IMG/VR virus record: IMGVR_UViG_2531839662_000027
Coordinates: 1-15,076 of that record
From: a virus
Lineage: Duplodnaviria > Heunggongvirae > Uroviricota > Caudoviricetes
Reading direction: 5' to 3' (one strand)
DNA length: 15,076 nucleotides
In this document: piece after piece, positions 1 to 15,076 of the stretch
Numbering within the stretch: position 1 is the stretch's first letter
Layout of the letters: each line of letters starts with the position of its first letter
Notes under the pieces: model-generated
What the model saw: only the letters and a program-made list of their open reading frames with translations
Database searches by the model: none
Told to the model about the DNA's origin: nothing
Made by a program: the position numbers and the translations under genes

Positions 1-952
1 TTATTCAGCCTTAGCAAAAGTGGTCATAGTTGTTCCACTGAAAGTGAATGACCTGTCTGTAAGAGTAACATCCTGAATAGCAAAGTAATCGCCAACACCA
101 GCGCCATTTACATAAAACTCGAATATCTCAGATGTATTTTCCGGAATAATATTATTAGCAATATAACACGTAGATAAAGAACCATTTGTTGATGGTAAAG
201 TTCCAAATAGCGTTGCATCCGATGCAGCATATATCGAACTGCTTAAATAAATATTTATATCAACATTACTCTCATAAGTAACAATTAAGTACACCCGGTC
301 GTTAACCTTCCACCCTCTGTCTTTTATCTTAGTATTAAGTGATAGCTTGTTAGAACTAGGGGTCGTTACGGTATTAATGGTTATTTTTGCTCCTATTGAG
401 TTGTATCTGCTTCTGGTTACTGTATTACCAGTATTGTTCATTGTATAAAGGATTGCTCTGCTTTCTGCAAACGTCCTCATATTAATCTTGCCTAAACAAT
501 CTCCTTCCATAACTTGTGGGCCAGACACAGTTGCACCAATATAACAATTAGTAAATACAGCATGAGCCCTGTTGTCAGTGCTTGATGCAAGTAATGAAAG
601 TTTAAAGTTGCCCTGATCTGCAATCCAGCAACTATCAACCTTAACTACAGCATCATTGTCAAGAACAACAAACCTTCCTCCCTCATTGTAATATCCTACA
701 AAAGCATTTACACCGCTTATTTTTACTACTCCATCTGGAACCGTAAAGATATCGCCTTGTATCGCTTCGCCATAGTACCCGCCAACAATATTGGTCACTC
801 GGGTATTTAAGTACATGCCATGCCCAATGCCGAACTCAAGGTCACATCCAATTAAGCTTAAACCTTCAATAGGGGAAGTACCAGAAGCATAAAAGGCATA
901 TTCACCGACCTTATTTGATGCAAATCCACAGTTATTGAACGTTACGCGGTTG
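1..952 (-). pseudogene. Tailspike gene (P22 gp9-type), C-terminal portion downstream of the IS1 insertion; stop codon at 1-3
   Basis: ORF 1..966 (-) continues in frame from the 1719-2769 fragment once IS1 and one copy of the target duplication are removed; the residues encoded from 966 down to 953 come from the IS1 end. Repetitive Gly/Asn/Val-rich beta-strand-like composition is consistent with a beta-helix receptor-binding domain. Confidence 0.7.
945..952. repeat. Left copy of the 8-bp IS1 target-site duplication (CGCGGTTG)
   Basis: Identical octamer directly flanks both IS1 ends (945-952 and 1719-1726). Confidence 0.7.
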
Positions 953-966
953 GGTAGTGCATCCAA

Positions 967-1362
967 TTAGTAGAACATGTGTTTTTCGATAAACGCTCCG
1001 ATCACTTTTTCGTGGATCTCAACTGAGCGTGAGAAGCAGATTGTTTTACGAGCCAACCGCTTAATGCGGGTGCGTAGCGTCAGATTATTACGCTCAATGC
1101 GTTGGGTGAATATTTTGCCGGTCAGATGCTTATTCTTCGGCACCTCCCGGCCATAGCTGCCCCAGTCATCGCTGGTCAGCATGCCGATGTTGAAGGGTGT
1201 AAGCAGTGCCAGTAGCTCCCGGCACGTTTGATCGGTTCGGGGACCAAAAGTGTAGGCCAGTACACCGCCTGTTTTGGTGTTGTACGCGTACCAGAGCCAG
1301 TGTTGCCGGGCTTTACTGCCAACGTAGCTCCATTGCTCATCAAGCTCGCAGATAAGCGCCAC
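967..1362 (-). CDS. insB: IS1 InsB reading frame (normally expressed as InsAB' transposase by -1 frameshift from insA)
   Basis: Translation aligns by eye with IS1 InsB (motifs ELDEQW.YVG, YTQRIER.NL.LR, SFSKSVE.H.KVIG); lies directly downstream of insA in the -1 frame. Confidence 0.8.
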   Translation of the reverse strand: MALICELDEQWSYVGSKARQHWLWYAYNTKTGGVLAYTFGPRTDQTCRELLALLTPFNIGMLTSDDWGSYGREVPKNKHLTGKIFTQRIERNNLTLRTRIKRLARKTICFSRSVEIHEKVIGAFIEKHMFY

Positions 1363-1388
1363 ATCAGCATGGGCAACAGGCGAAGACG

Positions 1389-1661
1389 TTATTCGCTTTG
1401 GCGCGAGTTTTTTAAAGTCCGGATGACGGTGTTAATACCAATTTTCAGTGTCCTGGCGGTATCGCGAACCCCGGCACCATTAAAGGCCATTTCAGTTATC
1501 AGCTCTTTCATACCCGGCTTACGTGCTTGATAAGTATAAGTGAGCTGAAACACACGGTGGCAGTCACGGCAGCGAAATCTGTCACGGCCTTTAGGGTTCT
1601 GACCATGGCGGTAAACCTGAGCTGACTGACAACGGGGACAATGAATATTAACGCTGGCCAT
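1389..1661 (-). CDS. insA: IS1 InsA (zinc-finger transposition regulator)
   Basis: 90-aa protein with a CPxC...CxxC zinc-finger N-terminus and helix-turn-helix C-terminus, colinear with IS1 InsA (MASV.I.CP.C...); divergent from classical IS1. Confidence 0.85.
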   Translation of the reverse strand: MASVNIHCPRCQSAQVYRHGQNPKGRDRFRCRDCHRVFQLTYTYQARKPGMKELITEMAFNGAGVRDTARTLKIGINTVIRTLKNSRQSE

Positions 1662-1718
1662 GAGATAACCTCAAAAGCCCGTATTATACATCAGATTCAA
1701 CTAATTAGAGGCATCACC

Positions 1719-1726
1719 CGCGGTTG
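1719..1726. repeat. Right copy of the 8-bp IS1 target-site duplication (CGCGGTTG)
   Basis: Identical to 945-952. Confidence 0.7.
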
Positions 1727-2769
1727 TTAGCCCCAGCAAGGTGAACTCCGCGATTTGGCGCAGGAACAAAAGAACAGCAATCATAGGTATTAAGCCAGTC
1801 GTTTATAGTATAGAAGTTCGCCACCACGCCATTGATGAAACGACAATTATGGGTTCTTCCTAGGTGAACATATTGAATTCGGCAAGCATAGTTGGCGATG
1901 TTGTTCCCATCAACTGTAACGTGAGAGATAGATGTGCTACGTCTTATAGAGTCAGTTTCGTAGTACATGTTGACAACTGTCTCTCCAGTGAACCCACTCC
2001 CCGCAATAATGAATGACTTCTCAACGCCATCCCCGAATAGGTCAACAGTGCCTATTGTTAAATCAACTGGTGACTTAACATAGTAAGTTCCTGCAGGGAC
2101 AAACAGCCTCTTTCCTGCCGATAAAGCAACTGCTGCAGCAGCATTAAAGCTAGCTGAGTTATCTGCCGCTGGATCACCAGTAATGGGGAAAAATTGAGCA
2201 ACAGAAATATAATCTGCTACCGTCACTTCGTACCATGGCAAAGCAGGAGATGACGGAAGAGTGCCACTACCACCGGTGTAGATTTTATTATTATACCACC
2301 ACCAGTTATCAACATTAGATAACACCCCCTCCTGCCACACCCCCCCTAACGAGAAATCAAGACCGTAAGAAGTAGCTATCTGACTTAATGATAATGTTGC
2401 TCCTCTGTCAGAAGCTAATTCTTGCCTTAATTGGTCAGGGTCATACTTCAGCACATTAGGAAAATAGAACTGCTGTGCACCATACGCATCATAAACAGCC
2501 ATAGAATGGCCTTGCACAGTTACGAACTTGGCAATCTGTCCGTTATATACCGGATATCCAGCAGCGTTAATGATGATTGGTTGCGAAACAGGAACGTGAG
2601 AGCCGTCTTCGTTCTCCACATAAACCTGAATCTGGTTTTCAGGATTTACAGGGTCAGTGTCAATTTTACCGATATAAATTTTGCCATTGGCTACGGCTTT
2701 AAAAGAACGAGCCATAGTGAAGAGTTGCGAAGGCATGCTTACCACAACATTTGCGGTGATATCTGACAT
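1719..2769 (-). pseudogene. Tailspike gene (P22 gp9-type), N-terminal portion upstream of the IS1 insertion
   Basis: From ATG at 2769-2767 the protein starts [13 protein letters not shown]...[37 protein letters not shown]...[13 protein letters not shown]...NVLKYDPDQ, matching the P22 tailspike head-binding domain as I recall it ([13 protein letters not shown]...). The frame is cut one codon into the IS1 end. The track ORF starts 16 codons earlier at 2817; 2769 is preferred by homology. Confidence 0.8.
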
Positions 2770-2794
2770 TTCATTGCTCCAGACGAATGATATG

Positions 2795-2817
2795 ATGCAA
2801 CCATGATGTGGTTGCAT
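2795..2817. promoter_or_regulatory. Perfect 9-bp inverted repeat (ATGCAACCA-N5-TGGTTGCAT) in the mnt/tailspike divergent intergenic region; candidate repressor operator
   Basis: Arms 2795-2803 and 2809-2817 are exact reverse complements; sits between the divergent start codons of tailspike (2769) and mnt (2891); no T-run on either side, so a terminator is unlikely. Confidence 0.4.
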
Positions 2818-2890
2818 ACCGAAATGGTACTATTGAGTATTTATCCAGTGGGTTACGATGCCATTCCACCCAACTGGTGAGGCATCAAGG

Positions 2891-3151
2891 ATGTACAGCA
2901 AATACGACGATGCGCAGTTTCACTTGAGACTTCCGCATGAACTCCACGCGAAAATTAAACAGCGTGCGAAGATGAATAACAGGTCACTGAACTCAGAGAT
3001 AATTGCAGCGATTGAAGAATCATTGGCTAAACAAAGCTCTGCATCAGTTTACATTGACGATGCAGAGCGTATGGCAGAACAACAATCTGATATGGTTAAG
3101 AAAATTGTCTTTGATACGCTCAAAGAGATATATAAAAAAGACAGCAACTAA
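2891..3151 (+). CDS. mnt: Mnt-like ribbon-helix-helix repressor (Arc/MetJ family)
   Basis: Protein MYSKYDDAQFHLRLPHELHAKIKQRAKMNNRSLNSEIIAAIEESL...DDAERMAEQQSDMVKKIVFDTLKEIYKK resembles P22 Mnt as recalled (..NDAERLADEQSELVKKMVFDTLKDLYKK); P22-like synteny next to the tailspike. Start at 2891 preferred over the track start at 2858 by alignment and a GAGG 9 nt upstream. Confidence 0.7.
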   Translation: MYSKYDDAQFHLRLPHELHAKIKQRAKMNNRSLNSEIIAAIEESLAKQSSASVYIDDAERMAEQQSDMVKKIVFDTLKEIYKKDSN

Positions 3152-3168
3152 CCATCCGTGGCTTTCCG

Positions 3169-5014
3169 TTACTTCTGGTTATCATCACTGTTCATCCAGT
3201 ACATGATGCCTAGCCTTGATATGGTTTTCTTATCTGATTCTGGAAGTGAGTTGTAAAACGAGCGCCAAGCAGAAGAGCGTCTTACAGTTGTATCAACGAT
3301 GCTTTCTGGTGCTTGTTTTACTGCCAGCCTTGCTGCTTTCTGGAATTCTGGTGAGCTAATTAGCTTTTCTGCAGATTCAATTGATTCAGCGCCGCCCATC
3401 GCCCTGATTTTGCTGGCGACTTTTGCCCCAATTTCTGACCCAGCAACAGCACCTACTGCACTGAACGGTCCTGACACAGTTGAACCAACCGCAGTGCCAA
3501 TGCGTTGGGCATGGTTAGCAACAAATTCATTTGCCGCAGTGACGCGATTAAACCGTTTTACGAACTCGTTTAGTCTTCCTGTAGTTATCTCGTAAGATTT
3601 TGCGTCTTTGATAGCCTTTGCGACCTTATATACATCGTTCAGACCTGACATAGTCTCTTTTGGTAAATGTCGGGCAAGATTGCGCATCTGCCCGTTTGCT
3701 AACATGTTTTGATACCAGTCAGCAAACCCTGCAGGATTAAAATCAGCGCCACGTTTTCCGTTCGAAAGCATATCCCGAAGACCTGTTCCCAGTAGCTCGG
3801 TTCTTAGCTTCCTGGACGGCGTGTTTTGCATCAATTCACGAAATCCTTTGGCATCGCCTTTCGACATTGCCTGTAGTGCTGTAGTTGCTTTGCGAGAAAC
3901 ATCACCGTTCAGCGTTCTGCCAGTTAGATTAATCATTTGCTCTTCCATGCTTTTTCGCATCTGAACAAGCCTCTGAGCAACTTCAAAATCACGTAATGCA
4001 TTTGTCTCTGACAGCGCCGCCTTTTGATCATCGGCGAGCGAACCGTAAAGCCTCGATAAAGCAGCGCGATCAGCATCTTTATATGGTCCAGAATTCTTAT
4101 GAAGTGCATCACCAACAAGTCGTCGTTGCTTATTGAGATTTGCATAAGTTAATGCGCCGTTCTTGCCTGGATTAACTGCCCGAAAGACTCTCTTTTCAAT
4201 AGGGTCAAGGTTTTTCATCCCGCCAAGATCTTCTGCCACCTGTTTGAGCATTGACCTTGTTGATGGCGCATCAATTTTTGCACCTGCAGGCATCGCCTTT
4301 TCAACATTGCGATAAAGCTGGTCGCTTCGTTTCATCAGCGCAGACATTCTTCCATTGACCGTATCAATAAACTTGTCGCTCATACCAAGAGCATCTTTTG
4401 CACCGGAAACGCGATCAATTATCTCCCCCGCGCCCTGTGCTAGCTGCCTGATTGCTTCATTTTCCTGCACCTGTAGAGCAGAACCCGCACGGGACTTGAT
4501 TGCTTGCTCAACTGCCTTGTATTGCTCGTTCCCGGAAAAGTGTGAAGGGAGTAATGAATCAACATTAAGCCTTTCAGCAGACTCCAGAACTTCAGCCTGA
4601 GGATTGATATCTAGTTCATCAAGCGATGAAGCGAGATTTGGCCTTTTTTGTGCTGCTACTGTGCGAACGACTTCCTCTGGGTTCCTCGTCGCAGGCGTCA
4701 TTGGTACACCTTGTGCTACTCTTGCCTCTGCGGCATGAACCGCAGGATTTGTTGCTGCAGCGGCATCACCGGAGAATGGTGATGTTTCTGTTGGCGCCGT
4801 GGTCGCTCTCTGTGCAGATGTTTTATTGCCACTAATTATATTTGATGCACCACGAACACCACGGGTAACGCCATTTATCAGGCCATGCGTAGCAATGTTA
4901 AGTCCGGCATTAATAGCGGCATTTTCGGCAAAATCACCCCGTTGATTCGCCGCGTCAGCGAGAGAACCAATGACCATGTTTCCAGCTACACCTGCTCCAG
5001 GAACAAGATAACCG
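3169..5014 (-). pseudogene. Ejection (injection) protein, P22 gp16-like: portion downstream of the IS629 insertion
   Basis: 602-codon frame joins in frame to the 6325-6713 fragment when IS629 plus one CCG copy is removed, giving about 743 codons; last gene of the gp7-gp20-gp16-like series before mnt/tailspike. Confidence 0.55.
5012..5014. repeat. Left copy of the 3-bp IS629 target-site duplication (CCG)
   Basis: CCG immediately flanks both IS ends (5012-5014, 6325-6327); a 3-bp duplication is typical of the IS3 family. Confidence 0.55.
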
Positions 5015-5068
5015 TGAACCGCCCCGGAAATCCTGGAGACTAAACTCCCTGAGAAAGAGGTAAACAGG

Positions 5069-5395
5069 ATGACTAAAAATACTCGTTTTTCCCCCGAAGT
5101 CCGTCAGCGGGCGATTCGTATGGTTCTGGAAAGTCAGGATGAATATGACTCACAGTGGGCGGCAATTTGTTCCATTGCCCCAAAGATTGGCTGTACGCCG
5201 GAGACTCTGCGTGTCTGGGTTCGCCAGCATGAGCGGGATACCGGGGGCGGTGATGGTGGGCTCACCAGCGCTGAACGTCAGCGTCTGAAAGAGCTGGAAC
5301 GTGAAAATCGTGAACTGCGCCGCAGTAACGATATCCTTCGCCAGGCTTCCGCTTATTTTGCGAAGGCGGAGTTCGACCGCCTCTGGAAAAAATGA
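5069..5395 (+). CDS. IS629 OrfA (helix-turn-helix, leucine-zipper transposase N-terminal part)
   Basis: 108-aa ORF, IS3-family OrfA architecture; sequence recognised as IS629 OrfA. Confidence 0.9.
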
Positions 5396-6282
5396 TGCCA
5401 CTGCTGGATAAGCTGCGTGAGCAGTACGGGGTCGGACCGGTATGTAGCGAACTGCATATTGCCCCGTCAACGTATTACCATTGTCAGCAACAGCGACATC
5501 ATCCGGATAAACGCAGTGCCCGTGCGCAGCACGATGACTGGCTGAAGAAAGAGATACAGCGCGTATACGATGAAAATCACCAGGTATACGGTGTGCGTAA
5601 AGTCTGGCGTCAGTTGTTACGGGAAGGTATCAGAGTGGCCAGATGCACTGTGGCACGTCTCATGGCAGTTATGGGACTTGCCGGTGTTCTCCGGGGTAAA
5701 AAGGTCCGCACTACCGTCAGCCGGAAAGCCGTTGCCGCAGGCGACCGCGTAAACCGTCAGTTCGTGGCAGAACGACCTGACCAGCTGTGGGTGGCTGATT
5801 TTACTTACGTCAGCACATGGCAGGGCTTCGTCTATGTGGCGTTTATCATTGATGTGTTTGCCGGATACATCGTGGGGTGGCGGGTCTCATCGTCTATGGA
5901 AACGACATTCGTGCTGGATGCGCTGGAGCAGGCGTTGTGGGCCCGTCGTCCGTCTGGCACCATCCATCACAGCGATAAAGGCTCTCAGTATGTGTCACTG
6001 GCCTATACGGAGCGACTAAAAGAAGCCGGATTACTGGCATCAACAGGGAGTACAGGCGACTCGTATGACAACGCGATGGCTGAGAGCATCAATGGTCTTT
6101 ACAAAGCGGAGGTAATACACCGTAAGAGCTGGAAAAACCGTGCAGAAGTGGAACTGGCCACACTAACGTGGGTGGACTGGTATAACAATCGACGATTGCT
6201 GGGAAGGCTGGGCCATACTCCTCCGGCAGAAGCAGAAAAAGCTTATTATGCTTCCATCGGAAACGATGATCTGGCAGCCTGA
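5392..6282 (+). CDS. IS629 OrfB (DDE catalytic domain; expressed as OrfAB by -1 frameshift)
   Basis: 296-aa ORF overlapping orfA by ATGA; integrase-like DDE region (..[16 protein letters not shown]..). Confidence 0.9.
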
Positions 6283-6324
6283 GTTCACAGATAAAACACT
6301 CTCCAGGAAACCCGGGGCGGTTCA

Positions 6325-6327
6325 CCG
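6325..6327. repeat. Right copy of the 3-bp IS629 target-site duplication (CCG)
   Basis: See 5012-5014. Confidence 0.55.
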
Positions 6328-6713
6328 CCTATTGACTCTCCAGCTTGCGCGTAGGGGTCTGTCGGTCTGTCTACTGGACGATAAACATCATCCAATACTT
6401 TTGGCCCCCCAAGCCCCTGACTGATTGCATTAATCAGACTTGCGCCACCCTGCAATACGTCAAATGGTATGTTTACCAGACCACGACCAGCCTGTTCTGC
6501 AATTTGCCCTGCACTTTGACCACCAGTGAGCCAATCGCCAGCTTGTTGCATCAATGATGGTTCTTCCCGTGTTGGTGCATTATTGGCCTGATTAACTGTT
6601 TGTTGCTGAACAGCCTGACCAGCAAAATACTCATCAATGGCGGTGCCAATATCTTCGGTGCTCGTACCATCAGGGAAGGTAAATGTCTTACCGTTTGCAG
6701 TTACTTTCATCAT
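6325..6713 (-). pseudogene. Ejection protein gp16-like: N-terminal portion upstream of the IS629 insertion
   Basis: Start ATG at 6713-6711 overlaps the stop of the upstream gene (ATGA coupling); native coding runs to 6325, and the last 13 codons of the track ORF (6285-6323) are read from the IS629 end. Confidence 0.55.
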
Positions 6714-8116
6714 TCCACCGTAAATTGAATGCCTGATTTTGAGGTATATGATCCAACCTGATTCCTTGGTTCTCCTGAAGGTGTCGAATCTTGTGCTGGC
6801 GCTGCGTCAGTATTCATTGACATATACCGCTTAACGGCACTCCCCAATGATTCACCTTTTTTAACATCCAACCCCAATATCTGACCGCCATTACGCGATT
6901 GTCCTGGATTGCCATTCGCGCTCATCCACTCGGCTTTAAACTCATTAAACTGCGCGTTTCGTCGCTCAAGGTTTGCCATCGCATCAAGCCATCTTGCGAC
7001 CGTCTCAGGGTTATCCATGTCAGTTGGCGCACCCTGTCGAACGATCTCAACGTCTTTATCCGTTGCTGGGCCGGGAGGTAGGAATTTAAGAACCTGACTG
7101 TTAACAAGGGCATTTTGGCGAATGCGCAAATCACGCAATGTTGTATCGCTTCCGGTAAGTTTTGCGAACATGTTCTGTGCGTTACCGAACAAACCTGTCG
7201 TTGGTTTTTCTGCTCTGAACTGTTGAGCAAGCGCACTCATAGAATTGGCTGAGTTTGATGATGCTGTAGCATTGTTTACAGCCGTCTCGATGCCTTTTTC
7301 CATGTTTACTGACAGCTTAGGTGCTTCGCTAATCAACTGCTGAGCCTTTTCCTGCGCTTGCTGCATCTTAAACCCGAACTCTTGCTGATCCAGAGCCAAG
7401 CGTTGTGCTGCGATATTGTGCCCTGTCATTGCTGACTGATAGGAAAGGTTTTGCCCTCTCGCCTGAAGTGCCTCGCCAGCCTGATTGCTGCGGATTGTCT
7501 CTGCCAGCCTGCCTCGGTCAATCTCACGACCAGCCATCTTGTCCTGAACATTGAAGTAGTCAATCGGACCGAGAGCAGCCATCCCAAGGTGATCAACAAA
7601 CTCACCAAATCCTGAAGGATTCTGCTGATACATCTGAGCAACGCTGTTAGGGTCAACACCGACGCGAGTCAGTTCCTTGGCGTTGTTTTGCAGCCATGAT
7701 TGCATTGCTTCTGGAGACGATGACGCAAGGCGTGCGCCAGCCGCTAAGGTGCCGATAGAATTGCGCTGGTCTTCATCAATGAATCCCATGCCTTTACGAA
7801 CGGATTCAATCTGGTCTGGATATTGAGTAGCCAACTGACGCAAAGCACCGCGATCACCAGACGCATAAGCATTAGCGTACGCCTGCTGAAATTCTTTCTG
7901 CCGCTGAGCCTGCTTTTCCTGCTGAAACACCCCTGCAATGCCTGAAAGGCCTTGCAAAGCAGTAAGCCCAACATTGTTAGCGCCTGAACGCTCAATATCA
8001 TTGTTCTGCCTGATAAGCTGAAGCGTATTGCCGATGTCATTTACGCTCGGAGCGTTTGAGTTGACGCCGCCGATACCAGCTAACAATCCGCCATTTGATC
8101 CTTGCCAAGTAGCCAT
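6710..8116 (-). CDS. Ejection (injection) protein, P22 gp20-like, 468 aa
   Basis: Size nearly identical to P22 gp20 (471 aa as recalled), Gln/Ala-rich helical composition, position between the gp7-like and gp16-like genes, translationally coupled at both ends. Assigned by synteny and size, not by a verified alignment. Confidence 0.6.
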
Positions 8117-8125
8117 GATTACCCC

Positions 8126-8504
8126 TTAAAACAACGAGCCAAGCAATCCGATACCAGCACCAATGCCAGCGCCCCAAGGTGTTGATGTTCCCAAAAGGCT
8201 GGCAAGACCTGCACCGGCAATCGCACCAGACGTTCCGCCACTAATTGCTGTCTGAAGACTTGATGGTTTGTTGGCATTAGCAGCGGCAAGAGCTGCGCTT
8301 TGCTGTGCAATGCTGCTCATGTTGTTGGCGTACGTCTGCCCGGCGTTTGCCTGACCTTGCAGAGCACCAAGCCCAACGTTTGCCAGATTGTTGTAATTGC
8401 TCATCTGGTTTGATAACCAAGACTGACCGAGAGTCGGCGCGATCGTAGCCAGTTGATTGCTTGTGGCTGTCGAACCAAGTCCTCCCGTAACCGCGAGGCA
8501 TCGA
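8126..8504 (-). pseudogene. 3' fragment of a gp7-like ejection protein gene, 5'-truncated at the deletion junction
   Basis: The open frame runs into cro-derived DNA in a frame different from cro; the first 17 codons of track ORF 8126..8554 are cro DNA read out of frame, so no native start or RBS remains. C-terminus is Gly/Ala-rich and hydrophobic. Confidence 0.45.
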
Positions 8505-8582
8505 CTATACGCCGAGATCTTTAGCTGTCTTGGTTTGACCAAAGCGCATTGCATAATCTTTCAGAGTTATGCGTTGTTCCAT
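8505..8582 (-). pseudogene. cro: cro, truncated after codon 25 by a deletion junction
   Basis: Minus strand reads CATGTACTAAGGAGGTTGTATGGAACAACGCATAAC...AAAGATCTCGGCGTATAG: lambda cro RBS and first 25 codons (MEQRITLKDYAMRFGQTKTAKDLGV), then a stop where lambda has TAT CAA AGC; sequence 3' of 8505 is unrelated to cro. Confidence 0.8.
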
Positions 8583-8606
8583 ACAACCTCCTTAGTACAT
8601 GCAATT

Positions 8607-8676
8607 ATTATCACCGCTAGAGGTAAAATAGTCAACACGCACGGTGTTAGATATTTATCCCTTGCGGTGATAGATT
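8607..8676. promoter_or_regulatory. Lambda-type right operator: oR1 (8609-8625), oR2 (8633-8649), oR3 (8656-8672), with pR (minus strand) and pRM (plus strand)
   Basis: 17-bp operators TATCACCGCTAGAGGTA, CAACACGCACGGTGTTA and TATCCCTTGCGGTGATA match lambda oR1/oR2/oR3 with one change in oR1; pRM-like TAGATA (8648-8653) and TAGATT (8671-8676) precede a leaderless cI ATG at 8683; pR -35/-10 read on the minus strand at 8635-8630 and 8612-8607. Confidence 0.85.
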
Positions 8677-8679
8677 TAA

Positions 8680-9396
<717 letters not shown>

Positions 9397-9403
9397 CACG
9401 TAA

Positions 9404-9841
9404 ATGATTAAAGAACGTATTTCTTATATCATTCCGATTGCGATGGATGAAGGCAACCCCGTAACTCCAGTTCTTATCTATGAAATGGATAAAGACTCCC
9501 ATGAAGTGGATCTGTCATTTGGCGCTTTTTTTATCGGCCTTAAGGCTACAAAAAAATATTCCATAGGCATTGAGGTTTTCAATGCTCAAGAAATACCGAT
9601 ACCAATTGACACAAAACTGTACTCCAACCATAAGTTTTTTACGGTAGCAGAAGCCAACGATGGAGAAACCATCGTATCAACTTCTATGAGAATTAACTTC
9701 CCAAGGGTGAAAATTATCAAGCCTGGGATATTCGAAGTTAGAGCATCACTGGTTAATCCTGAGAAAGGCGAAGTAATTGATGTAAAAAGTTCGTTTTTTG
9801 ACGTGAAGATAACAGGATCAGTTCGCGATGAGTTTAGATAA
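9404..9841 (+). CDS. Hypothetical 145-aa protein in the rex position (first gene of the cI-linked module)
   Basis: ATG 7 nt after the cI stop, no terminator between; no transmembrane segment evident; AT-rich; no similarity to RexA that I can recognise. Confidence 0.6.
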   Translation: MIKERISYIIPIAMDEGNPVTPVLIYEMDKDSHEVDLSFGAFFIGLKATKKYSIGIEVFNAQEIPIPIDTKLYSNHKFFTVAEANDGETIVSTSMRINFPRVKIIKPGIFEVRASLVNPEKGEVIDVKSSFFDVKITGSVRDEFR

Positions 9842-10199
9842 CAAGGTTGCTCAGCTTCGTCCAAATCAAAACATATCTCGCCCAATTGGACACTATTCCA
9901 CTGATGATGCATACTCACGGCATGGTGGAGGAAACGGCGGAGGTAACATGCTTGAGGCTAGAGTTGCAAAGCTAGAGTCTGATGTTGAATACATCAAGCG
10001 CGATCTCGCTGAGGTAAAGTCAGATATAAAATCTGTTGATTCTCGTCTGTCAGGTATTGAGACAAGCATTAGCTCAGCAAAAACCACCATTAAGGCATCT
10101 GCGGTCGTTGTCAGTTTCGTGTTCGCATTTTGCGCCTACATTTTTGGAAGTTATGTTTCCAAAATCCTTGATGCCTTAAACGGACTCGTTCTTAAGTAA
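9828..10199 (+). CDS. Hypothetical small membrane protein (123 aa, or 80 aa from the internal start at 9958): Gly-rich linker, coiled coil, C-terminal hydrophobic segment
   Basis: Overlaps the previous ORF by 14 nt; heptad-like LEARVAKLESDVEYIKRDLAEVKSDIKSVDSRL; hydrophobic AVVVSFVFAFCAYIFGSYV; internal ATG at 9958 is preceded by GGAGGTAAC; a strong terminator follows. Confidence 0.6.
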   Translation: MSLDNKVAQLRPNQNISRPIGHYSTDDAYSRHGGGNGGGNMLEARVAKLESDVEYIKRDLAEVKSDIKSVDSRLSGIETSISSAKTTIKASAVVVSFVFAFCAYIFGSYVSKILDALNGLVLK

Positions 10200-10206
10200 C
10201 ACACAA

Positions 10207-10233
10207 CCCGGCCTCAGTGCCGGGTTTTCTTTG
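10207..10233 (+). terminator. Rho-independent terminator ending the cI operon (t-imm equivalent)
   Basis: Perfect 6-bp GC stem CCCGGC/GCCGGG with 6-nt loop followed by TTTTCTTTG, directly after the second rex-slot ORF. Confidence 0.7.
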
Positions 10234-10383
10234 CCTCTCGATCCCCCTTCCCAACAACACATAACCATTTGTATTTATTGGAAAACTAATAGATACAACT
10301 TGCTAAACAGTGCAATTCTGATCCCTCACCTACCTAACAATTCACCCCTGCAAAAAATAAATCCATATAAAAAACATACAGAT

Positions 10384-10446
10384 AACCATCTGCGGTGATA
10401 AATTATCTCTGGCGGTGTTGACACAAATACCACTAGCGGTGATACT
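10384..10446 (+). promoter_or_regulatory. Lambda-type left operator and pL: oL3 (10384-10400), oL2 (10404-10420), oL1 (10428-10444); pL -35 TTGACA (10418-10423), -10 GATACT (10441-10446)
   Basis: AACCATCTGCGGTGATA, TATCTCTGGCGGTGTTG and TACCACTAGCGGTGATA match lambda oL3/oL2/oL1 as recalled; 17-bp spacer between -35 and -10; oriented toward N. Confidence 0.85.
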
Positions 10447-10491
10447 AAACACATCAGCAGGAAGCTGGAAGCCAAACGGAACAGATTGGCA

Positions 10492-10526
10492 TGCTCTTTA
10501 ACTTCGATGGGGCGCTGACAAAGCGC
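10492..10526 (+). promoter_or_regulatory. nutL site: boxA (TGCTCTTTAAC, 10492-10502) and boxB hairpin (GCGCT-GACAA-AGCGC, 10512-10526), P22 type
   Basis: boxA-like motif followed 9 nt later by a 5-bp stem/5-nt loop hairpin whose sequence matches the P22 boxB as I recall it; located between pL and the N-like gene. Confidence 0.7.
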
Positions 10527-10645
10527 AAACAGATACCAAACGAGATGGGTTTGGCGGTGATGTGAATTGCAGCAGTAACGACAGCAACCAGAAGATCAGC
10601 ATCTGGCGCATCACCACCAAAGCTATTTCACATGAGGAAAACATC

Positions 10646-10954
10646 ATGACGGTAATCGTGTACGGAAAATCAACATTTGCAGGAAATGCCAAGACTCGCC
10701 GTCATGAGCGGCGCAGAAAGCTGGCCATCGAGCGTGATTCCATCTGCAACATCATCGATTCGATCTTCGGCGCAGACAGTGAGGAGCCTGTTCAGGAAGC
10801 CCCGAGAAAACGTTTAAGCCTTTCTGAAAAAGCAATATCACTCGGAATCCTTCGCTGCAAGAAGGCAGATGAATGCAGTGGAAGTATTTGCCTGCCAAAC
10901 GTAGCCATTTACGCGGCAGGCTACCGGAAATCAAAACAACTGACGGCGAGGTAA
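10646..10954 (+). CDS. N: N-family transcription antiterminator, P22 gene 24 type
   Basis: Arginine-rich motif GNAKTRRHERRRKLAIERD near the N-terminus matches the P22 N RNA-binding peptide as recalled; ATG at 10646 preceded by GAGGA; first gene after pL/nutL. The track ORF from 10562 is an upstream in-frame extension, judged not used. Confidence 0.8.
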   Translation: MTVIVYGKSTFAGNAKTRRHERRRKLAIERDSICNIIDSIFGADSEEPVQEAPRKRLSLSEKAISLGILRCKKADECSGSICLPNVAIYAAGYRKSKQLTAR

Positions 10955-11182
10955 GTGATGAATCAGACATACATTCCATCATGCTTGAGAAATCTGCCAA
11001 AGCAGAAAGCAAAGCCCCGCAAGCAAGCCATAAAGGACGCTAAGGCAGAGGTTATTGATCAAGCAATACAATTGCTCAGGGAGGAGTTAAGAAGTGGCAA
11101 GCTCGAAGGAATGATGATGCCCTATCAGCGCGGATATCTATCGGCGATTAGTAAGTTGGAAGTACTGAAGAGTGAATTATGA
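10955..11182 (+). CDS. Hypothetical 75-aa basic/helical protein
   Basis: ORF starting GTG-ATG immediately after the N stop (coupled); no recognisable motif. Confidence 0.45.
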   Translation: MMNQTYIPSCLRNLPKQKAKPRKQAIKDAKAEVIDQAIQLLREELRSGKLEGMMMPYQRGYLSAISKLEVLKSEL

Positions 11183-11244
11183 ACTATCTGGAATTTCCGG
11201 ATGGTTCATTGTTTTGGCAGCAAACCACTTATTTGAGGTGATAT

Positions 11245-11331
11245 ATGGAAGAAGAATTTGAAGAGTTCGAAGAGCATCCTCAGGATGTGATGGAACAATA
11301 CCAGGACTATCCTTATGACTACGACTATTGA
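11245..11331 (+). CDS. Possible micro-ORF encoding a 28-aa highly acidic, aromatic peptide (MEEEFEEFEEHPQDVMEQYQDYPYDYDY)
   Basis: ATG preceded by GAGGTGATAT; the 3' end overlaps the ral start by 17 nt; below the ORF-track length cutoff. Confidence 0.3.
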   Translation: MEEEFEEFEEHPQDVMEQYQDYPYDYDY

Positions 11332-11515
11332 TAAAAATCAATGGTGTGGACAATTCAAGCGATGCAATGGATGCAAGCTGCAATCGGAATGCATGGTTAA
11401 ACCTGAAGAAATGTTTCCTGTAATGGAGGATGGGAAATATGTCGATAAATGGGCAATACGAACGACGGCAATGATTGCCAGAGAACTTGGTAAACAGAAT
11501 AACAAGGCTGCCTGA
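11315..11515 (+). CDS. ral: Ral, restriction alleviation protein (66 aa)
   Basis: Translation MTTTIDKNQWCGQFKRCNGCKLQSECMVKPEEMFPVMEDGKYVDKW... matches lambda Ral as I recall it; expected position in the pL operon downstream of N. Confidence 0.8.
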   Translation: MTTTIDKNQWCGQFKRCNGCKLQSECMVKPEEMFPVMEDGKYVDKWAIRTTAMIARELGKQNNKAA

Positions 11516-11574
11516 TGGTGGCCTTTGTTTTTTGGCCGTAAATAATTTCATGCTTATTACAATCAAGGGGATAT

Positions 11575-11820
11575 ATGGAAGAACAAGCAAACAAGATTCT
11601 CGTAGAACTACTGCAAAAAGCCAGTAATGGAATAGACGCGGCTGTTTCATTTAGCCAGGCACAGATTCCTGATGTCATCCATCAGCTTTTGATGTGGCAC
11701 GCCGTATCATCAGCTGGAATTCAGGCTACATGGTCAGACGAAGAATTCATTCGTCAGATGAACAAAATGCTCAATCAGCACAAAGAACAGGAGAAAGATG
11801 ATGATTCTGACTCTGAATGA
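11575..11820 (+). CDS. Hypothetical 81-aa protein with a strongly acidic C-terminal tail (EQEKDDDSDSE)
   Basis: ATG preceded by AAGGGGATAT; overlaps the next ORF. Confidence 0.5.
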   Translation: MEEQANKILVELLQKASNGIDAAVSFSQAQIPDVIHQLLMWHAVSSAGIQATWSDEEFIRQMNKMLNQHKEQEKDDDSDSE

Positions 11821-12109
11821 TAAGCGTGAAATATCGCAAATAATCGCAAGTTTTACTGATGAAGATTACGAGCGAATCAACAGTGAAGTTGATCGTCTCT
11901 GCAAACGTTGCGACCCAATAAGCGAAATGCTTCGCTCATATAAACCAGATGAACACACTAAGGACGCTATCGACTGGCTGGAAGATGATGACTGTAACTA
12001 TCAGGAAAAAGCCGCTGAATGGTTCTGGGATGCAATAACCGAAAGAGTTAAGGCTGAATATGCCTTCGCAATATTCAAACGCAGACACATTTATGGAGAA
12101 GCAGCATGA
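11798..12109 (+). CDS. Hypothetical 103-aa acidic protein
   Basis: ATG preceded by GGAGAAAG; ATGA-coupled to recT downstream. Confidence 0.5.
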   Translation: MMILTLNDKREISQIIASFTDEDYERINSEVDRLCKRCDPISEMLRSYKPDEHTKDAIDWLEDDDCNYQEKAAEWFWDAITERVKAEYAFAIFKRRHIYGEAA

Positions 12110-13017
12110 GCAATATCGTTGAATTCGTTAAACAGCAGGAGCAGTTATTCTGCGGAGCATTGACTGAACAGACGGTGACATGGGCTAAGGAAAGCCAGTT
12201 TGCAATTCAGTATTTCCAGAAAAATGATTACCTGGCTAAAACGGCACTGGCAAATCCAACCAGCGCACAGAACGCCATCATCAATGTTGCGGCGATCGGC
12301 ATCACCTTAAACCCGGCTAGCAAACTGGCTTATCTGGTTCCGCGCGACGGCATGGTGTGCCTTGATATCAGTTATATGGGATTGCTCCATATTGCAATGG
12401 AGTCTGGTGTTATCTCATGGGGTCAGGCAAAACTTGTTCATGCTAACGATACCTATGAGTCAAACGGGCTTGATAAAGCACCAACCCATAAATACAACGC
12501 CTTCGGTGATCGTGGTGATATCGTTGGCGTTTACTGCACAGTTAAGACGCCAGCAGGTGATTATCTAACGGAAGAGATGAGTCTGGCTGAAATTGAGGCT
12601 GTAAGGAAAACAAGCAAGGCGGCATTCAGCGATAAAGGACCATGGGTAAATCACTGGAATGAGATGGCGCGAAAGACGGTCGTAAAGCGTGCAAGCAAGT
12701 ATTGGCCTAAGGCATCACGTCTTGATAGTGCTATTCACGTACTAAACGAAGAAGAAGGTGTGTGGACTGAACCAGTTATGCCGCACAAATCAGAGGAAGA
12801 TATCCGCGAAGATGAACGGAAACGCCAGCAGGAAATAACGGATAAAGCACAACTTCTTTGTGATGAAATGGATCAGGCAGAAAACATGGATGATTTGAAG
12901 CGATATTTTGCAGAAGCATATCGCCTGACATCTGGAATGAAATTGCAGCAGAACGTACAAGCCATTTACATAGAATGCAAAGCGAAACTGGAGGTTGCCA
13001 GTGAGCAAACTGTATGA
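12106..13017 (+). CDS. recT: RecT-family single-strand annealing protein
   Basis: Conserved block GPWVNHWNEMARKTVVKRASKYWP resembles the RecT signature (GPWVTHWEEMAKKTAIRRLFKYLP in Rac RecT as recalled); size and position typical of a phage recombination module. Confidence 0.8.
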   Translation: MSNIVEFVKQQEQLFCGALTEQTVTWAKESQFAIQYFQKNDYLAKTALANPTSAQNAIINVAAIGITLNPASKLAYLVPRDGMVCLDISYMGLLHIAMESGVISWGQAKLVHANDTYESNGLDKAPTHKYNAFGDRGDIVGVYCTVKTPAGDYLTEEMSLAEIEAVRKTSKAAFSDKGPWVNHWNEMARKTVVKRASKYWPKASRLDSAIHVLNEEEGVWTEPVMPHKSEEDIREDERKRQQEITDKAQLLCDEMDQAENMDDLKRYFAEAYRLTSGMKLQQNVQAIYIECKAKLEVASEQTV

Positions 13018-13483
13018 AATTGCCAATGAATACGCAAAATTGATGGATTCAGATTTAGAACCAGAGATGATTGCTGACACAATAGAAGGCATGGAAGGAG
13101 AATTTACCGATAAAATAGAGCAACTTCTTTCCGTCATTAAAAATGAATCTGGTTATGCTGAACGCCTCAAGGAAGAGGCAAAGTCACTGAATGAGCGAGC
13201 CGCAGTAATTCAAAATAAGATTGACAGCATCAAATCATATATAGCGTCATCGCTTGAAATGGTTGGCAAGAAAAATATTCGAGCAGGTATTCACCAGGTA
13301 ACAATCCGCAAACCGTCAGAAATTGTAGAAATCATCGACTCAAGCGCCCTTCCTCCTGAATACGTTGAGTTCGAAACGACAATTAAAGCCGACAAACTGG
13401 CAATCAAACACCAACTAAAAGCAGGAATAAATATCCCCGGTGCTCAACTCAAAGTTGGGAAACCTTCACTTCTTATCAAATAA
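13001..13483 (+). CDS. Sipho_Gp157-like protein (recombination-associated partner of RecT)
   Basis: Pattern LYEI..EY..L...LEPE...DT.EG.EGEF..K.E.........Y.....EEAK.L.ER...IQ.KI...K.Y.....E.VGKK.I......V.IRK.....VEIID...LP.EYV.......KADK.AIK..LKAG..IPGA matches the Gp157 family as I know it. GTG at 13001 with GGAGG 6 nt upstream preferred over the track TTG start at 12995. Confidence 0.65.
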   Translation: MSKLYEIANEYAKLMDSDLEPEMIADTIEGMEGEFTDKIEQLLSVIKNESGYAERLKEEAKSLNERAAVIQNKIDSIKSYIASSLEMVGKKNIRAGIHQVTIRKPSEIVEIIDSSALPPEYVEFETTIKADKLAIKHQLKAGINIPGAQLKVGKPSLLIK

Positions 13484-13494
13484 CGGTATCGCCT

Positions 13495-13809
13495 ATGAAA
13501 AAGACTCCATGGGAGAAATGGGAAGTCGATTTCTTGCGCGAAGTAGCGGCGACAATGCCAGTTGAAGTTATTGCTGAAAAACTGGAAAGGACTGAAAAAG
13601 CAGTAATGGCGAAAGCAACAAGGATTGGCGCTGACATTGTTAGCCGACTTCGTGGAAGACGATGGACAAGAGCCGAAGTATCACTTTTCGGTAAGTTCTC
13701 CGCAGAAGAAATAGCAATTGCAACCTGCCGCTCAATTTATTCAGTAAGGGCTATGCGATACAAGCTAAAAAAACTCGATGAAGAAAGAGCAGGCATACGA
13801 ATAAATTAA
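13495..13809 (+). CDS. Hypothetical 104-aa protein with two internally repeated helix-rich halves
   Basis: Halves [39 protein letters not shown] and [39 protein letters not shown] share a W-x2-EV-x-F ... A/S-V-x-A-x-x-R spacing. Confidence 0.5.
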
Positions 13810-13825
13810 CAAAGAGGAATTTACC

Positions 13826-13993
13826 ATGAGAGGACTTGCATACAATCCCGGCATTCTTCCGGCAGAAATGATTATTCGCCAACGCGTAAAGCCAATGCCA
13901 TCGAGAGAGGAATTGCTAAAGAGAAAGAGTTTCGGTTCTGTTAATGACAACAAATATCTGAATGCGATGTGGCGTAAAGGAGGCAAGCAGTGA
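13826..13993 (+). CDS. Possible small ORF (55 aa, basic)
   Basis: ATG preceded by AAAGAGGAA at good spacing; below the ORF-track cutoff. Confidence 0.3.
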
Positions 13994-14295
13994 GTAATTC
14001 CGCACGACTACAGCTTGGTTTTTCACCGCTATCAAAAACTATCATGCTGGCAAAAATGCGCGATGTTGAAGGTGGACGTATGCGCGTTGGCAATGATCCA
14101 GGTCGTGATGCACGAAGAAAAGACAATAACAATCCTCGCACTCGCGGGGATTTCTTTTATCTGAACTCGCTACGGCGGGTTTTGTTTTATGTAGATGATA
14201 AATGCACTTCAGAGTCACAGGTGAATGGAATGGAGAGCCATTCAACAGAGTTATCGAAGCAGAGAACATCAACGACTGCTATGACCACTGGATAA
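13990..14295 (+). CDS. Doubtful ORF (GTG start, 101 aa, low-complexity Arg/Asp/Asn-rich)
   Basis: Open frame only; competing antisense ORFs; composition not protein-like in places. Confidence 0.2.
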
Positions 14296-14357
14296 TATGG
14301 GCGCAGATAGCACATGCAGACATAACCAATATTCGAATTGAAGAACTGAAAGAACAC

Positions 14358-14383
14358 CAAGCCGCCTGATGGCGGTTTTTTTA
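14358..14383 (+). terminator. Rho-independent terminator
   Basis: AAGCCGCC-TGAT-GGCGG stem-loop followed by TTTTTTT (14376-14382). Confidence 0.65.
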
Positions 14384-14396
14384 TTGGAGACAAGAA

Positions 14397-14741
14397 ATGT
14401 CAGATTTGGCTATGAAGGTTTTGAAATGGCAATCGACTGGCGATGTTGGCATCAGTAGCGCAACTCTTGCCTCAATCGCATGTGGACTGAAAAAGAATAT
14501 CTATGGTCATAGCTTCGGTGCTCCACATGACGCAGCCGATTTCCGACGATGCGTTGCGCTTGTCGAGCAGATTCCAGAAATCAGAGATTCATTCGACAAG
14601 GTTGCAAAGCGCGTTCCGGCATTCAAAGGCATCCTCAACGAATGGGATTCTCTCGTTGCTCTGTTGAAGTCTGAAATGAAGATACACGGAAACAAAGCGC
14701 CAGAGACTTACAGAAGAATCAGCGAGCTACGCAAGGACTAA
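14397..14741 (+). CDS. Hypothetical 114-aa protein
   Basis: ORF beginning 14 nt after the terminator T-run; no recognisable motif. Confidence 0.5.
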   Translation: MSDLAMKVLKWQSTGDVGISSATLASIACGLKKNIYGHSFGAPHDAADFRRCVALVEQIPEIRDSFDKVAKRVPAFKGILNEWDSLVALLKSEMKIHGNKAPETYRRISELRKD

Positions 14742-14743
14742 CT

Positions 14744-14839
14744 ATGGAATCACACGGCCTCACACTCGATGAGGCCTGTCAGTTTCTCAAGATATCCAGA
14801 CCTACCATCGCCGCATCAATGCGGTTTTTTATTACCTGA
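14744..14839 (+). other. 31-codon ORF whose first 24 codons look like the helix-turn-helix start of an excisionase/AlpA-type protein, ending in a terminator hairpin; possible gene remnant
   Basis: MESHGLTLDEACQFLKISRPTIAA resembles the N-terminus of AlpA/Xis-type proteins and the core of the ORF at 14876; the remaining codons run into a hairpin plus T-run. Confidence 0.3.
14811..14833 (+). terminator. Rho-independent terminator-like hairpin
   Basis: CCGCA-TCAA-TGCGG followed by TTTTTTATT. Confidence 0.5.
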
Positions 14840-14875
14840 TTTGCAGGTTCGATTCCCTATTCGGAGATAGCACTC

Positions 14876-15076
14876 ATGCAACACGAACTACAGCCTGATT
14901 CCCTGGTTGATTTGAAATTCATCATGGCTGATACTGGCTTTGGTAAAACCTTCATCTACGACCGGATTAAGTCCGGCGACCTGCCAAAAGCCAAAGTTAT
15001 CCACGGACGAGCAAGATGGTTATATCGTGACCATTGTGAATTCAAAAATAAGCTCTTAAGCCGCGCCAATGGGTAA
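14876..15076 (+). CDS. Excisionase/AlpA-family small DNA-binding protein (putative Xis), 66 aa
   Basis: Core L.FIMADTGFGKTFIYDRIKSGDLPKAKVIHGRARWLYRD..EF fits the AlpA/Xis winged-helix pattern; position at the distal end of the pL operon, where int would follow beyond the window. Confidence 0.55.
   Translation: MQHELQPDSLVDLKFIMADTGFGKTFIYDRIKSGDLPKAKVIHGRARWLYRDHCEFKNKLLSRANG

Follow-up and report, generated by a model that had tools for sequence, protein, structure and literature searches.

The interval between cI and N is recognised as a hotspot of mosaicism, where the phage-exclusion genes rexAB of lambda and bstA are found (PMC8585504). In phage lambda, rexA contains the promoter PLIT, from which rexB alone is transcribed, and the terminator Timm lies just after rexB, where transcripts end (bioRxiv 10.1101/2021.04.19.439022). 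According to PMC8585504, RexB activity is suppressed when rexB is overexpressed in relation to rexA, and this is speculated there to permit lambda lytic replication despite RexAB. In phage P22, esc is annotated as an in-frame gene nested in sieB, protecting P22 from self-exclusion. Here we describe a cassette that resembles both systems, found in a stretch of viral DNA of 15,076 nucleotides (nt) (IMG/VR record IMGVR_UViG_2531839662_000027, positions 1 to 15,076; the whole stretch is called the window). The cassette consists of a partner gene and a gene for a small membrane protein, and comparison with relatives suggests that the second gene gives both a long product and a short one nested in the same frame. 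We regard it as an even call whether this is an uncharacterised two-gene module of the exclusion type, expressed in the lysogen and provided with a nested short isoform.

The cassette occupies the same slot as rexA-rexB, co-oriented with cI, directly 3' of it and 5' of Timm, OL, PL and N. It likewise has two genes, of which the second encodes a membrane protein, and a second promoter in upstream coding sequence for the membrane component alone, which is here a predicted, conserved promoter-like element. The difference from PLIT is that the promoter predicted here lies inside the membrane gene's own 5' extension, and it would give a truncated isoform and not a whole second gene. RexB has four transmembrane segments. 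A multi-spanning protein, as RexB is depicted in bioRxiv 10.1101/2021.04.19.439022, differs from the coiled coil and single transmembrane segment of the protein described here. Moreover, no credible PADLOC or PHROG match pointed to homology with RexA or RexB (PADLOC being assumed to hold Rex models).

The likeness to sieB/esc lies in a prophage exclusion gene near the immunity region and in a full-length and an N-terminally truncated protein from an internal in-frame start, for which the evidence here is comparative. The position differs, as sieB of P22 has its own promoter and is encoded past gene 24 on the strand opposite that of c2, and not in the cI operon as here; BLASTP gave no alignment with SieB at E <= 100. 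Ranade & Poteete in 1993 are said to have described an antisense RNA in the sieB/esc switch. In contrast, neither an antisense promoter nor RNA structure was found near the internal start of our gene. A consensus scan of the minus strand gave no antisense promoter like sieB sas near 9948-10000, and folds of 9800-10010 and 9922-10010 gave no significant structure that could act as an RNA switch masking the internal Shine-Dalgarno (SD) sequence (z 0.59 and -0.36). The Rfam scan of the window found only the frameshift pseudoknot of an insertion sequence 3 (IS3) element, remote from the gene. A further comparison is BstA of prophage BTP1, which is also a lysogen-expressed defence gene 3' of the repressor with a self-immunity element at its own 5' end, and which differs in being a single protein at phage DNA replication sites, with an antidote, aba, that is apparently DNA-based (PMC8585504).

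The candidate internal start and the embedded promoter-like element

The preliminary description of this DNA had recognised 9828-10199 as a plus-strand open reading frame (ORF) with two candidate starts, and this ORF of 123 amino acids (aa) is genuine. As it had stated, ATG 9828 overlaps the end of the upstream ORF and follows a weak AGGA; the overlap with the partner ORF, stop codon included, is 14 nt, and the AGGA lies at 9814-9817, 10 nt 5' of the ATG. The internal start had been placed at 9958, but this position is out of frame (9958-9828 = 130) and does not carry an ATG. The actual site is 9948-9950, and the 40-aa extension given in that description agrees with 9948 and not with 9958. No other ATG, GTG or TTG stands in frame between 9828 and 9948 in the inspected sequence. 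GGAGGTAAC at 9939-9947 directly abuts the internal ATG, which is codon 41, and codes for part of the glycine-rich motif H32-GGGNGGGN-M41 (H-GGGNGGG-N); the ribosome-binding site (RBS) thus does double as coding sequence of the Gly-rich linker, as had been noticed.

About 55 distinct relatives with DNA, phylogenetically related to one another, were used for the comparison. An exact GGAGG occurs 4-10 nt 5' of the internal start in 38 of 50 distinct sequences, most commonly at 7 nt, compared to 15.4 ± 3.0 (maximum 28) in 1000 trials in which synonymous codons were resampled with local usage. At position -4, Gly is encoded by GGA in 34 of 48 sequences (71%), compared to 16% of all Gly codons in these loci and 10-25% at the remaining Gly sites of the motif. 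Counted per cluster of unalignable extension DNA, GGA at -4 was present in 25 of 36 and GGAGG in 27 of 36. The start codon itself is mostly ATG among the relatives; where it encodes Val it is always GTG (5/5), and where it encodes Leu it is always TTG (9/9), four of these nine cases having been retrieved later as a prospective test. Two relatives have ATT or ATC at this position, one of them with a 13-aa extension and in another genomic context.

The duplex energy with the anti-SD sequence was compared as well. Its mean over 54 loci was -11.2 kcal/mol at the internal start and -5.0 kcal/mol at the long start, and ordinary gene starts in the same loci reached -4.7 ± 3.2 kcal/mol. In the window, the values were -10.9 kcal/mol for the internal start and -4.1 kcal/mol for ATG 9828. 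The internal energy lies beyond that of ATG 9828 and of typical starts, and the earlier statement that this is the strongest RBS in the region therefore holds. Because of the GGAGG excess, the position-specific GGA and the duplex energy, the Gly motif is not a mere linker; part of it is a predicted SD sequence that the aligned genes keep at the nucleotide level. The synonymous sites around the conserved elements are saturated.

Furthermore, a consensus scan gave a sigma70-type site, TGGACA-17-CATACT, at 9887-9915 within the extension. Promoter-like sites were counted in the relatives by simple consensus matching, with at least 4/6 in each hexamer and the end of the -10 hexamer 25-45 nt 5' of the internal start. 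Such a site was present at that distance in 24 of 53 distinct relatives (45%), compared to 3.8% at random anchors in the same loci (binomial ~3e-20 with the sequences taken as independent, which they are not fully), in 17 distinct combinations of hexamers and distance. The spacer was 17 nt in 22 of the 24 listed sites. By our reading of the distances, the hexamers stand in differing codon phases, which argues for a constraint at the level of DNA rather than protein. In the nine relatives with the extension of type A, TGGACA is kept in 9/9 and GCATACT in 8/9, with the intervening 17 nt scrambled, and the partner proteins of these nine diverge to 34-49% identity. The -10 hexamer is frequently CAT-AAT or CAT-ACT in frame, which explains the recurrent H-N/H-T about 10 residues before the Gly motif in unrelated extensions. 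Between the window and Salmonella phage epsilon34, synonymous divergence (pS) was 0.13 in extension codons 6-32 and 0.64 in the partner gene, in a single pair with few differences; this fits either an extra nucleotide constraint, that is the promoter, or more recent recombination.

Partner, extension and core

The membrane protein belongs to a family that is annotated as 'hypothetical' or, at the National Center for Biotechnology Information (NCBI), as 'hemolysin XhlA'. An exhaustive profile search gave 104 representatives at E <= 1e-10; the best 150 profile matches were mostly small proteins of ~85-190 aa, and the rest were long repetitive proteins (coiled-coil noise). The relatives come from Enterobacterales, Vibrio, Shewanella, Pseudoalteromonas, Pseudomonas and Alphaproteobacteria, and the cassette is present in 16 of 5,426 complete E. 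coli genomes. From N- to C-terminus they share a hypervariable extension, the Gly-rich motif, a near-invariant Met, the coiled-coil start R[VI]AKLESDVEYIKRD, a variable coiled coil and a transmembrane segment, in whose region F106, G107 and Y109 are invariant. The extension has 10-60 aa and falls into at least ten unrelated types. The PHROG matches of both proteins are families without known function, NCBIfam gave nothing meaningful, and a sequence search of solved structures gave only generic coiled-coil matches, many of them trimeric fibres, which are at most a hint at the oligomeric state.

In about 50 loci, the frame is open upstream to an ATG that adjoins or overlaps a small upstream gene (-56 to +8 nt). 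Nonsynonymous divergence (pN) was lower than pS in the extension in 36/36 pairs of the nine type-A sequences, with a ratio of 0.2-0.6 that is similar to the partner gene, so that the extension is evidently translated and under selection as a protein. The upstream partners are three unrelated families: a beta-sandwich protein of 126-160 aa, to which the window ORF belongs (28 loci), a Cys4 zinc-ribbon protein (11 loci) and a protein of ~90 aa (6 loci). The extension type follows the partner family. The zinc-ribbon partner is an uncharacterised protein of ~100-130 aa (L045, L071, L072, L075, L006, L009, L019, L081, L085), and the ~90-aa partner, also uncharacterised, has a CVDAYSDSFGYSSFG motif (L066, L077, L090, L097).

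The same partner and extension are joined to at least six different coiled-coil/transmembrane cores (L102, L132, L133, L144, L145 and others), and DNA similarity between mosaics breaks within ~5 nt of ATG 9948. The cores look like interchangeable effector cassettes that are swapped at the internal start. An exhaustive profile search for fusions of partner and effector (a Rosetta-stone test) gave no clear case. Two relatives (L165, also P0098, and L164, also P0105) adjoin genes of the Mnt/Arc/antirepressor type, in an immI-like region as in P22-like phages, and in one relative of that setting the extension has only 13 aa and ATT stands in place of the internal start codon. The core is thus not confined to the cI operon.

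AlphaFold2 predicted residues 1-40 of the window protein as disordered (predicted local distance difference test, pLDDT, ~42), followed by one helix from exactly M41 to residue 122. The short product of about 80 aa in the preliminary description has 83 aa and is exactly this structured part, with the coiled coil and transmembrane helix that had been proposed. The selected, partner-tracking extension and the helix that begins at Met41 therefore make two nested products likely, as read from the sequences. The idea of two isoforms in one frame thus gained comparative support, the start, SD and promoter being conserved as nucleotides and the extension as protein.

The evidence on the junction was also weighed against the possibility that only one product matters. 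Either the short form would be real and the extension a leader for coupling, or the long form would be real and the Gly linker with its start, SD and promoter would be a relic of gene fusion, kept by recombination at the boundary. Stand-alone short versions (L091, L021) and gene calls that begin at the internal Met (P0055, P0076) do occur, the junction is a recombination boundary, and the ATT and ATC of two relatives fit such a view. Gly runs are moreover inherently SD-like, and the synonymous null already reached about -9.5 kcal/mol. However, a relic would not hold GGA at codon -4 amid randomised neighbouring Gly codons, nor use GTG alone for Val (5/5) and TTG alone for Leu (9/9), nor preserve the two promoter hexamers at an almost constant distance of 17 nt while their codon phase varies. 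If the extension were just a leader, neither pN < pS in 36/36 pairs nor covariation with the partner family would be expected. We consider a single relevant product distinctly unlikely.

The immunity region of the prophage

The cI of the window is ~93% identical in nucleotides to cI of HK97, mEp234 and HK106, and lambda-type OR and OL operators are visible. The gene order is cI, partner, membrane ORF, terminator, OL/PL and N, and from just past the cargo stop codon the window aligns with the annotated Timm/oL/pL of mEp234 and CL707. With flanks that match from the cargo stop codon on, the ORFs of 9404-10199 are therefore variable cargo between cI and Timm. A place in the repressor operon and co-transcription with cI are highly probable. 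Epsilon34 has homologues in the same order, gp46 repressor-gp45-gp44, and its authors noted that gp45 and gp44, without database matches, are placed like rexA and rexB (PMC2629481). Of 41 diverse loci, most have a CI/LexA-type repressor two genes upstream. In E. coli genomes that match window 8400-10600, as in the mEp234 and CL707 records, the cI and N flanks are shared and the slot carries other cargo. Among these alternative cargos are an SDH-family Clp-fold protease, a ParA-family protein, a P63C-domain protein, DUF1828, hicAB with a hypothetical gene, and a 301-aa hypothetical protein. This slot is a rich hotspot, most of it unannotated.

The prophage is defective. Its cro is cut after ~25 codons and fused to a truncated P22 gp7-like ejection gene (window 8126-8682), and one deletion removed the early-right (replication), lysis and head regions and kept cI, the cassette and the PL operon. 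The coordinates are collected in Table 1.

The preliminary description had likened the gene to dual-start holin/antiholin pairs and to small membrane disruptors of the XhlA type. The dual-start holins (lambda S105/S107) likewise form two membrane isoforms in one frame with differing N-termini. Holins stand in lysis cassettes, and the two starts of lambda S are two codons apart. Here, in contrast, 40 codons separate the starts, a promoter is predicted for the short form alone, and the locus is an immunity region. XhlA of PBSX (Pfam PF10779) is also small and begins with a coiled coil that is followed by a transmembrane segment towards the C-terminus, and of our two forms the short one alone has this layout. 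Typically, xhlA lies in a lysis cassette, xhlA-xhlB-xlyA, beside holin and endolysin genes. That context is not shared, since the neighbours here are cI, the partner, Timm and OL/PL-N. To our knowledge, an N-terminal extension with a Gly motif is not a feature of the XhlA family. The Pfam model scored 21.6 bits with the long form and 22.4 with the short form, under the gathering threshold of 34.7, in an alignment to model positions 9-62 of 67. A match at E <= 0.01 was obtained in 18 of 25 relatives, the best at 8.3e-6. Only the core type of the window gave the XhlA match; the other five cores gave none. The resemblance to XhlA is weak: it extends to the small coiled coil with C-terminal transmembrane layout, and not to the score or the lysis cassette.

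A role in lysis would make the protein an XhlA-type, holin-like disruptor, with the long and short forms as an antiholin/holin pair that times lysis. The sub-threshold match across the coiled coil and transmembrane region, the NCBI name of the relatives and the two likely nested products speak for it. Nevertheless, we consider it very improbable. The gene belongs to the immunity region, where it runs in the same direction as the repressor gene and precedes Timm rather than an endolysin gene, with no lysis genes nearby. In addition, the lysis/head region of this prophage is deleted and the cassette intact, the distance of the starts does not suit a holin, and neither the score of the window protein, which is under the cut-off, nor the best E value among the relatives favours a lysis protein. 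The holin/antiholin idea caught the two-isoform logic and not the biology, and rexA-rexB with PLIT and P22 sieB with nested esc are closer precedents than holins.

TABLE 1. Positions of the cassette, its regulatory elements and its neighbours in the window.
Feature	Position	Strand	Remarks
cI-type prophage repressor, 237 aa	8683-9396	+	Pfam HTH_3 and Peptidase_S24; first gene of the cassette operon
Partner gene, 145 aa, predicted cytoplasmic 8-strand beta-sandwich; epsilon34 gp45 homologue	9404-9841	+	
Long ORF, 123 aa, start coupled to partner	9828-10199	+	phrog_6136 matched full length; PGAP uses the 9828 start
N-terminal extension, codons 1-40, predicted disordered, partner-type-specific, with the putative embedded promoter and SD	9828-9947	+	
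Predicted -35 hexamer TGGACA of the embedded promoter	9887-9892	+	Consensus scan
Predicted -10 hexamer CATACT, 17-nt spacer, end 32 nt before ATG 9948	9910-9915	+	
Predicted transcript start of the embedded promoter	~9921-9924	+	
Gly-rich motif GGGNGGGN	9924-9947	+	GGAGG twice: 9927-9931 and 9939-9943 (the second is the putative SD of the internal start)
Nested short ORF, 83 aa: coiled coil (RVAKLESDVEYIKRD motif), transmembrane segment, conserved 13-aa tail	9948-10199	+	
Predicted transmembrane segment, residues 90-110 (ASAVVVSFVFAFCAYIFGSYV)	10095-10157	+	Read from the translation; inside the continuous predicted helix
Intrinsic terminator, Timm homologue	10205-10236 (10205-10226 plus T run)	+	Directly after the cargo stop codon
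PL promoter with OL operators	10418-10446	+	5' of the N-like gene
N-like antiterminator gene	10562-10954		N_peptide Pfam match
PR promoter inside OR, facing the truncated cro remnant	8607-8635	-	Partial Cro annotated by PGAP
ORFs overlapping the membrane gene	9893-10090, 9586-9918	-	Treated as spurious

In UMNF18, the closest E. coli genome, the prophage adjoins tRNA-Arg and intS, with torI and dsdC on the far side. The IS3-family element of the window lies at 5069-6282 (orfA 5069-5395, orfB 5392-6282; Rfam ALIL pseudoknot 5350-5466) and splits a P22 gp16-like ejection gene on the minus strand into halves at 3169-4977 and 6285-6713; this insertion is not in UMNF18. A fragment of an insertion sequence 1 (IS1) transposase (967-1362, minus strand) interrupts the tailspike gene (phrog_7173), the halves of which lie at 1-966 and 1714-2817 on the minus strand. 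A minus-strand ORF of 157 aa at 11177-11650 is without family match, overlaps plus-strand early-left genes and is probably spurious. One of the ORFs that it overlaps, the plus-strand ORF 11315-11515, is a Ral-family antirestriction gene in the annotation of UMNF18.

Proposed module and its meaning

In the lysogen, the cassette would be transcribed with cI from PRM. On this transcript, translational coupling to the partner at the weak SD would yield small amounts of the long form, and the short form would be made from the strong internal SD. In the beta-sandwich sub-family, the short form would additionally come from its own embedded promoter, so that one unit within the coding sequence of the extension would comprise the -35 (9887-9892) and -10 (9910-9915) hexamers, the GGAGG at 9939-9943 and ATG 9948. 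The extension would be a partner-specific adaptor and the short form an exchangeable membrane core, while the partner would be a sensor or regulator that acts via the adaptor on the membrane-protein effector. The ratio of short to long form might set an activity threshold or give self-immunity, in analogy to the excess RexB from PLIT and to Esc nested in sieB. A function in exclusion or abortive infection, suggested by the same analogies, has in our judgment slightly less than an even chance.

Several observations weigh against such a module. Expression, membrane location and function are read from sequence and from analogy. The window by itself has 4 occurrences of GGAGG-N3-10-ATG, where 2.9 are expected; the single-sequence observation is therefore not beyond chance, and the predicted internal-start signal is significant only by comparison with relatives. 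The spacer between GGAGG and ATG 9948 is 4 nt in the window, which is short and suboptimal, against a modal spacer of 7 nt in the relatives, and recombination between shared linkers could have raised the apparent conservation around the junction. The window promoter scores 9/12 with a non-consensus -10 hexamer. The promoter is, in our reading, poor or absent in the loci with the zinc-ribbon and ~90-aa partners, and it is therefore a feature of the beta-sandwich sub-family and not of the whole family. The fold of the partner is a generic immunoglobulin-like or carbohydrate-binding-module beta-sandwich without functional signature, and its viral structure matches are uncharacterised. PADLOC gave no match for the partner and only a weak CorA-like match for the membrane protein (E 0.0046), and no paper treating the family as a defence or lysis factor was found in the literature. 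Finally, as the prophage is defective, a current function in this strain is uncertain.

The same positional evidence would fit a membrane protein of the lysogen with a role other than abortive infection, such as blocking DNA entry in the manner of SieA, modulating induction or the choice between lysis and lysogeny, or raising host fitness (lysogenic conversion), with the isoforms serving stoichiometry. This would agree with the lack of a credible PADLOC match and with bioRxiv 10.1101/2021.04.19.439022, in which RexA and RexB are reported to help the transition from lysogeny to the lytic state. We consider such a role rather unlikely, only because the swapping of partners and cores and the precedents of nested antidotes better fit a defence system of sensor and effector.

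In its widest form, the proposal of a sensor-effector module would describe a widespread modular family of prophage defence in repressor operons that is not yet recognised. A swappable sensor, be it a beta-sandwich, a zinc-ribbon or another small protein, would dock on the matching disordered adaptor of a tail-anchored coiled-coil effector, and the adaptor-less core, made from a promoter, SD and start codon within the adaptor coding sequence, would tune the effector or be its antidote. This regulatory DNA would be constrained strongly enough to imprint motifs on unrelated proteins, namely GG from GGAGG and H-N/H-T from CATAAT/CATACT. We hold this general picture to be possible, if doubtful.

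In a lambda-immunity background, the cassette directly takes the place of rexAB as an alternative allele, and its family is found across Proteobacteria. If the proposed reading is true, this would be a second rex-slot cassette, unrelated in sequence to rexAB, whose membrane component has its own embedded promoter, and it would bear on how prophage exclusion systems spare their own host or phage. It would also offer a clean, mutable test case, since the SD, the -10 hexamer and the internal start would be separately removable by synonymous changes. Furthermore, regulatory DNA within genes would be readable from protein alignments, and nested products of this kind would be missed by gene callers and annotators.

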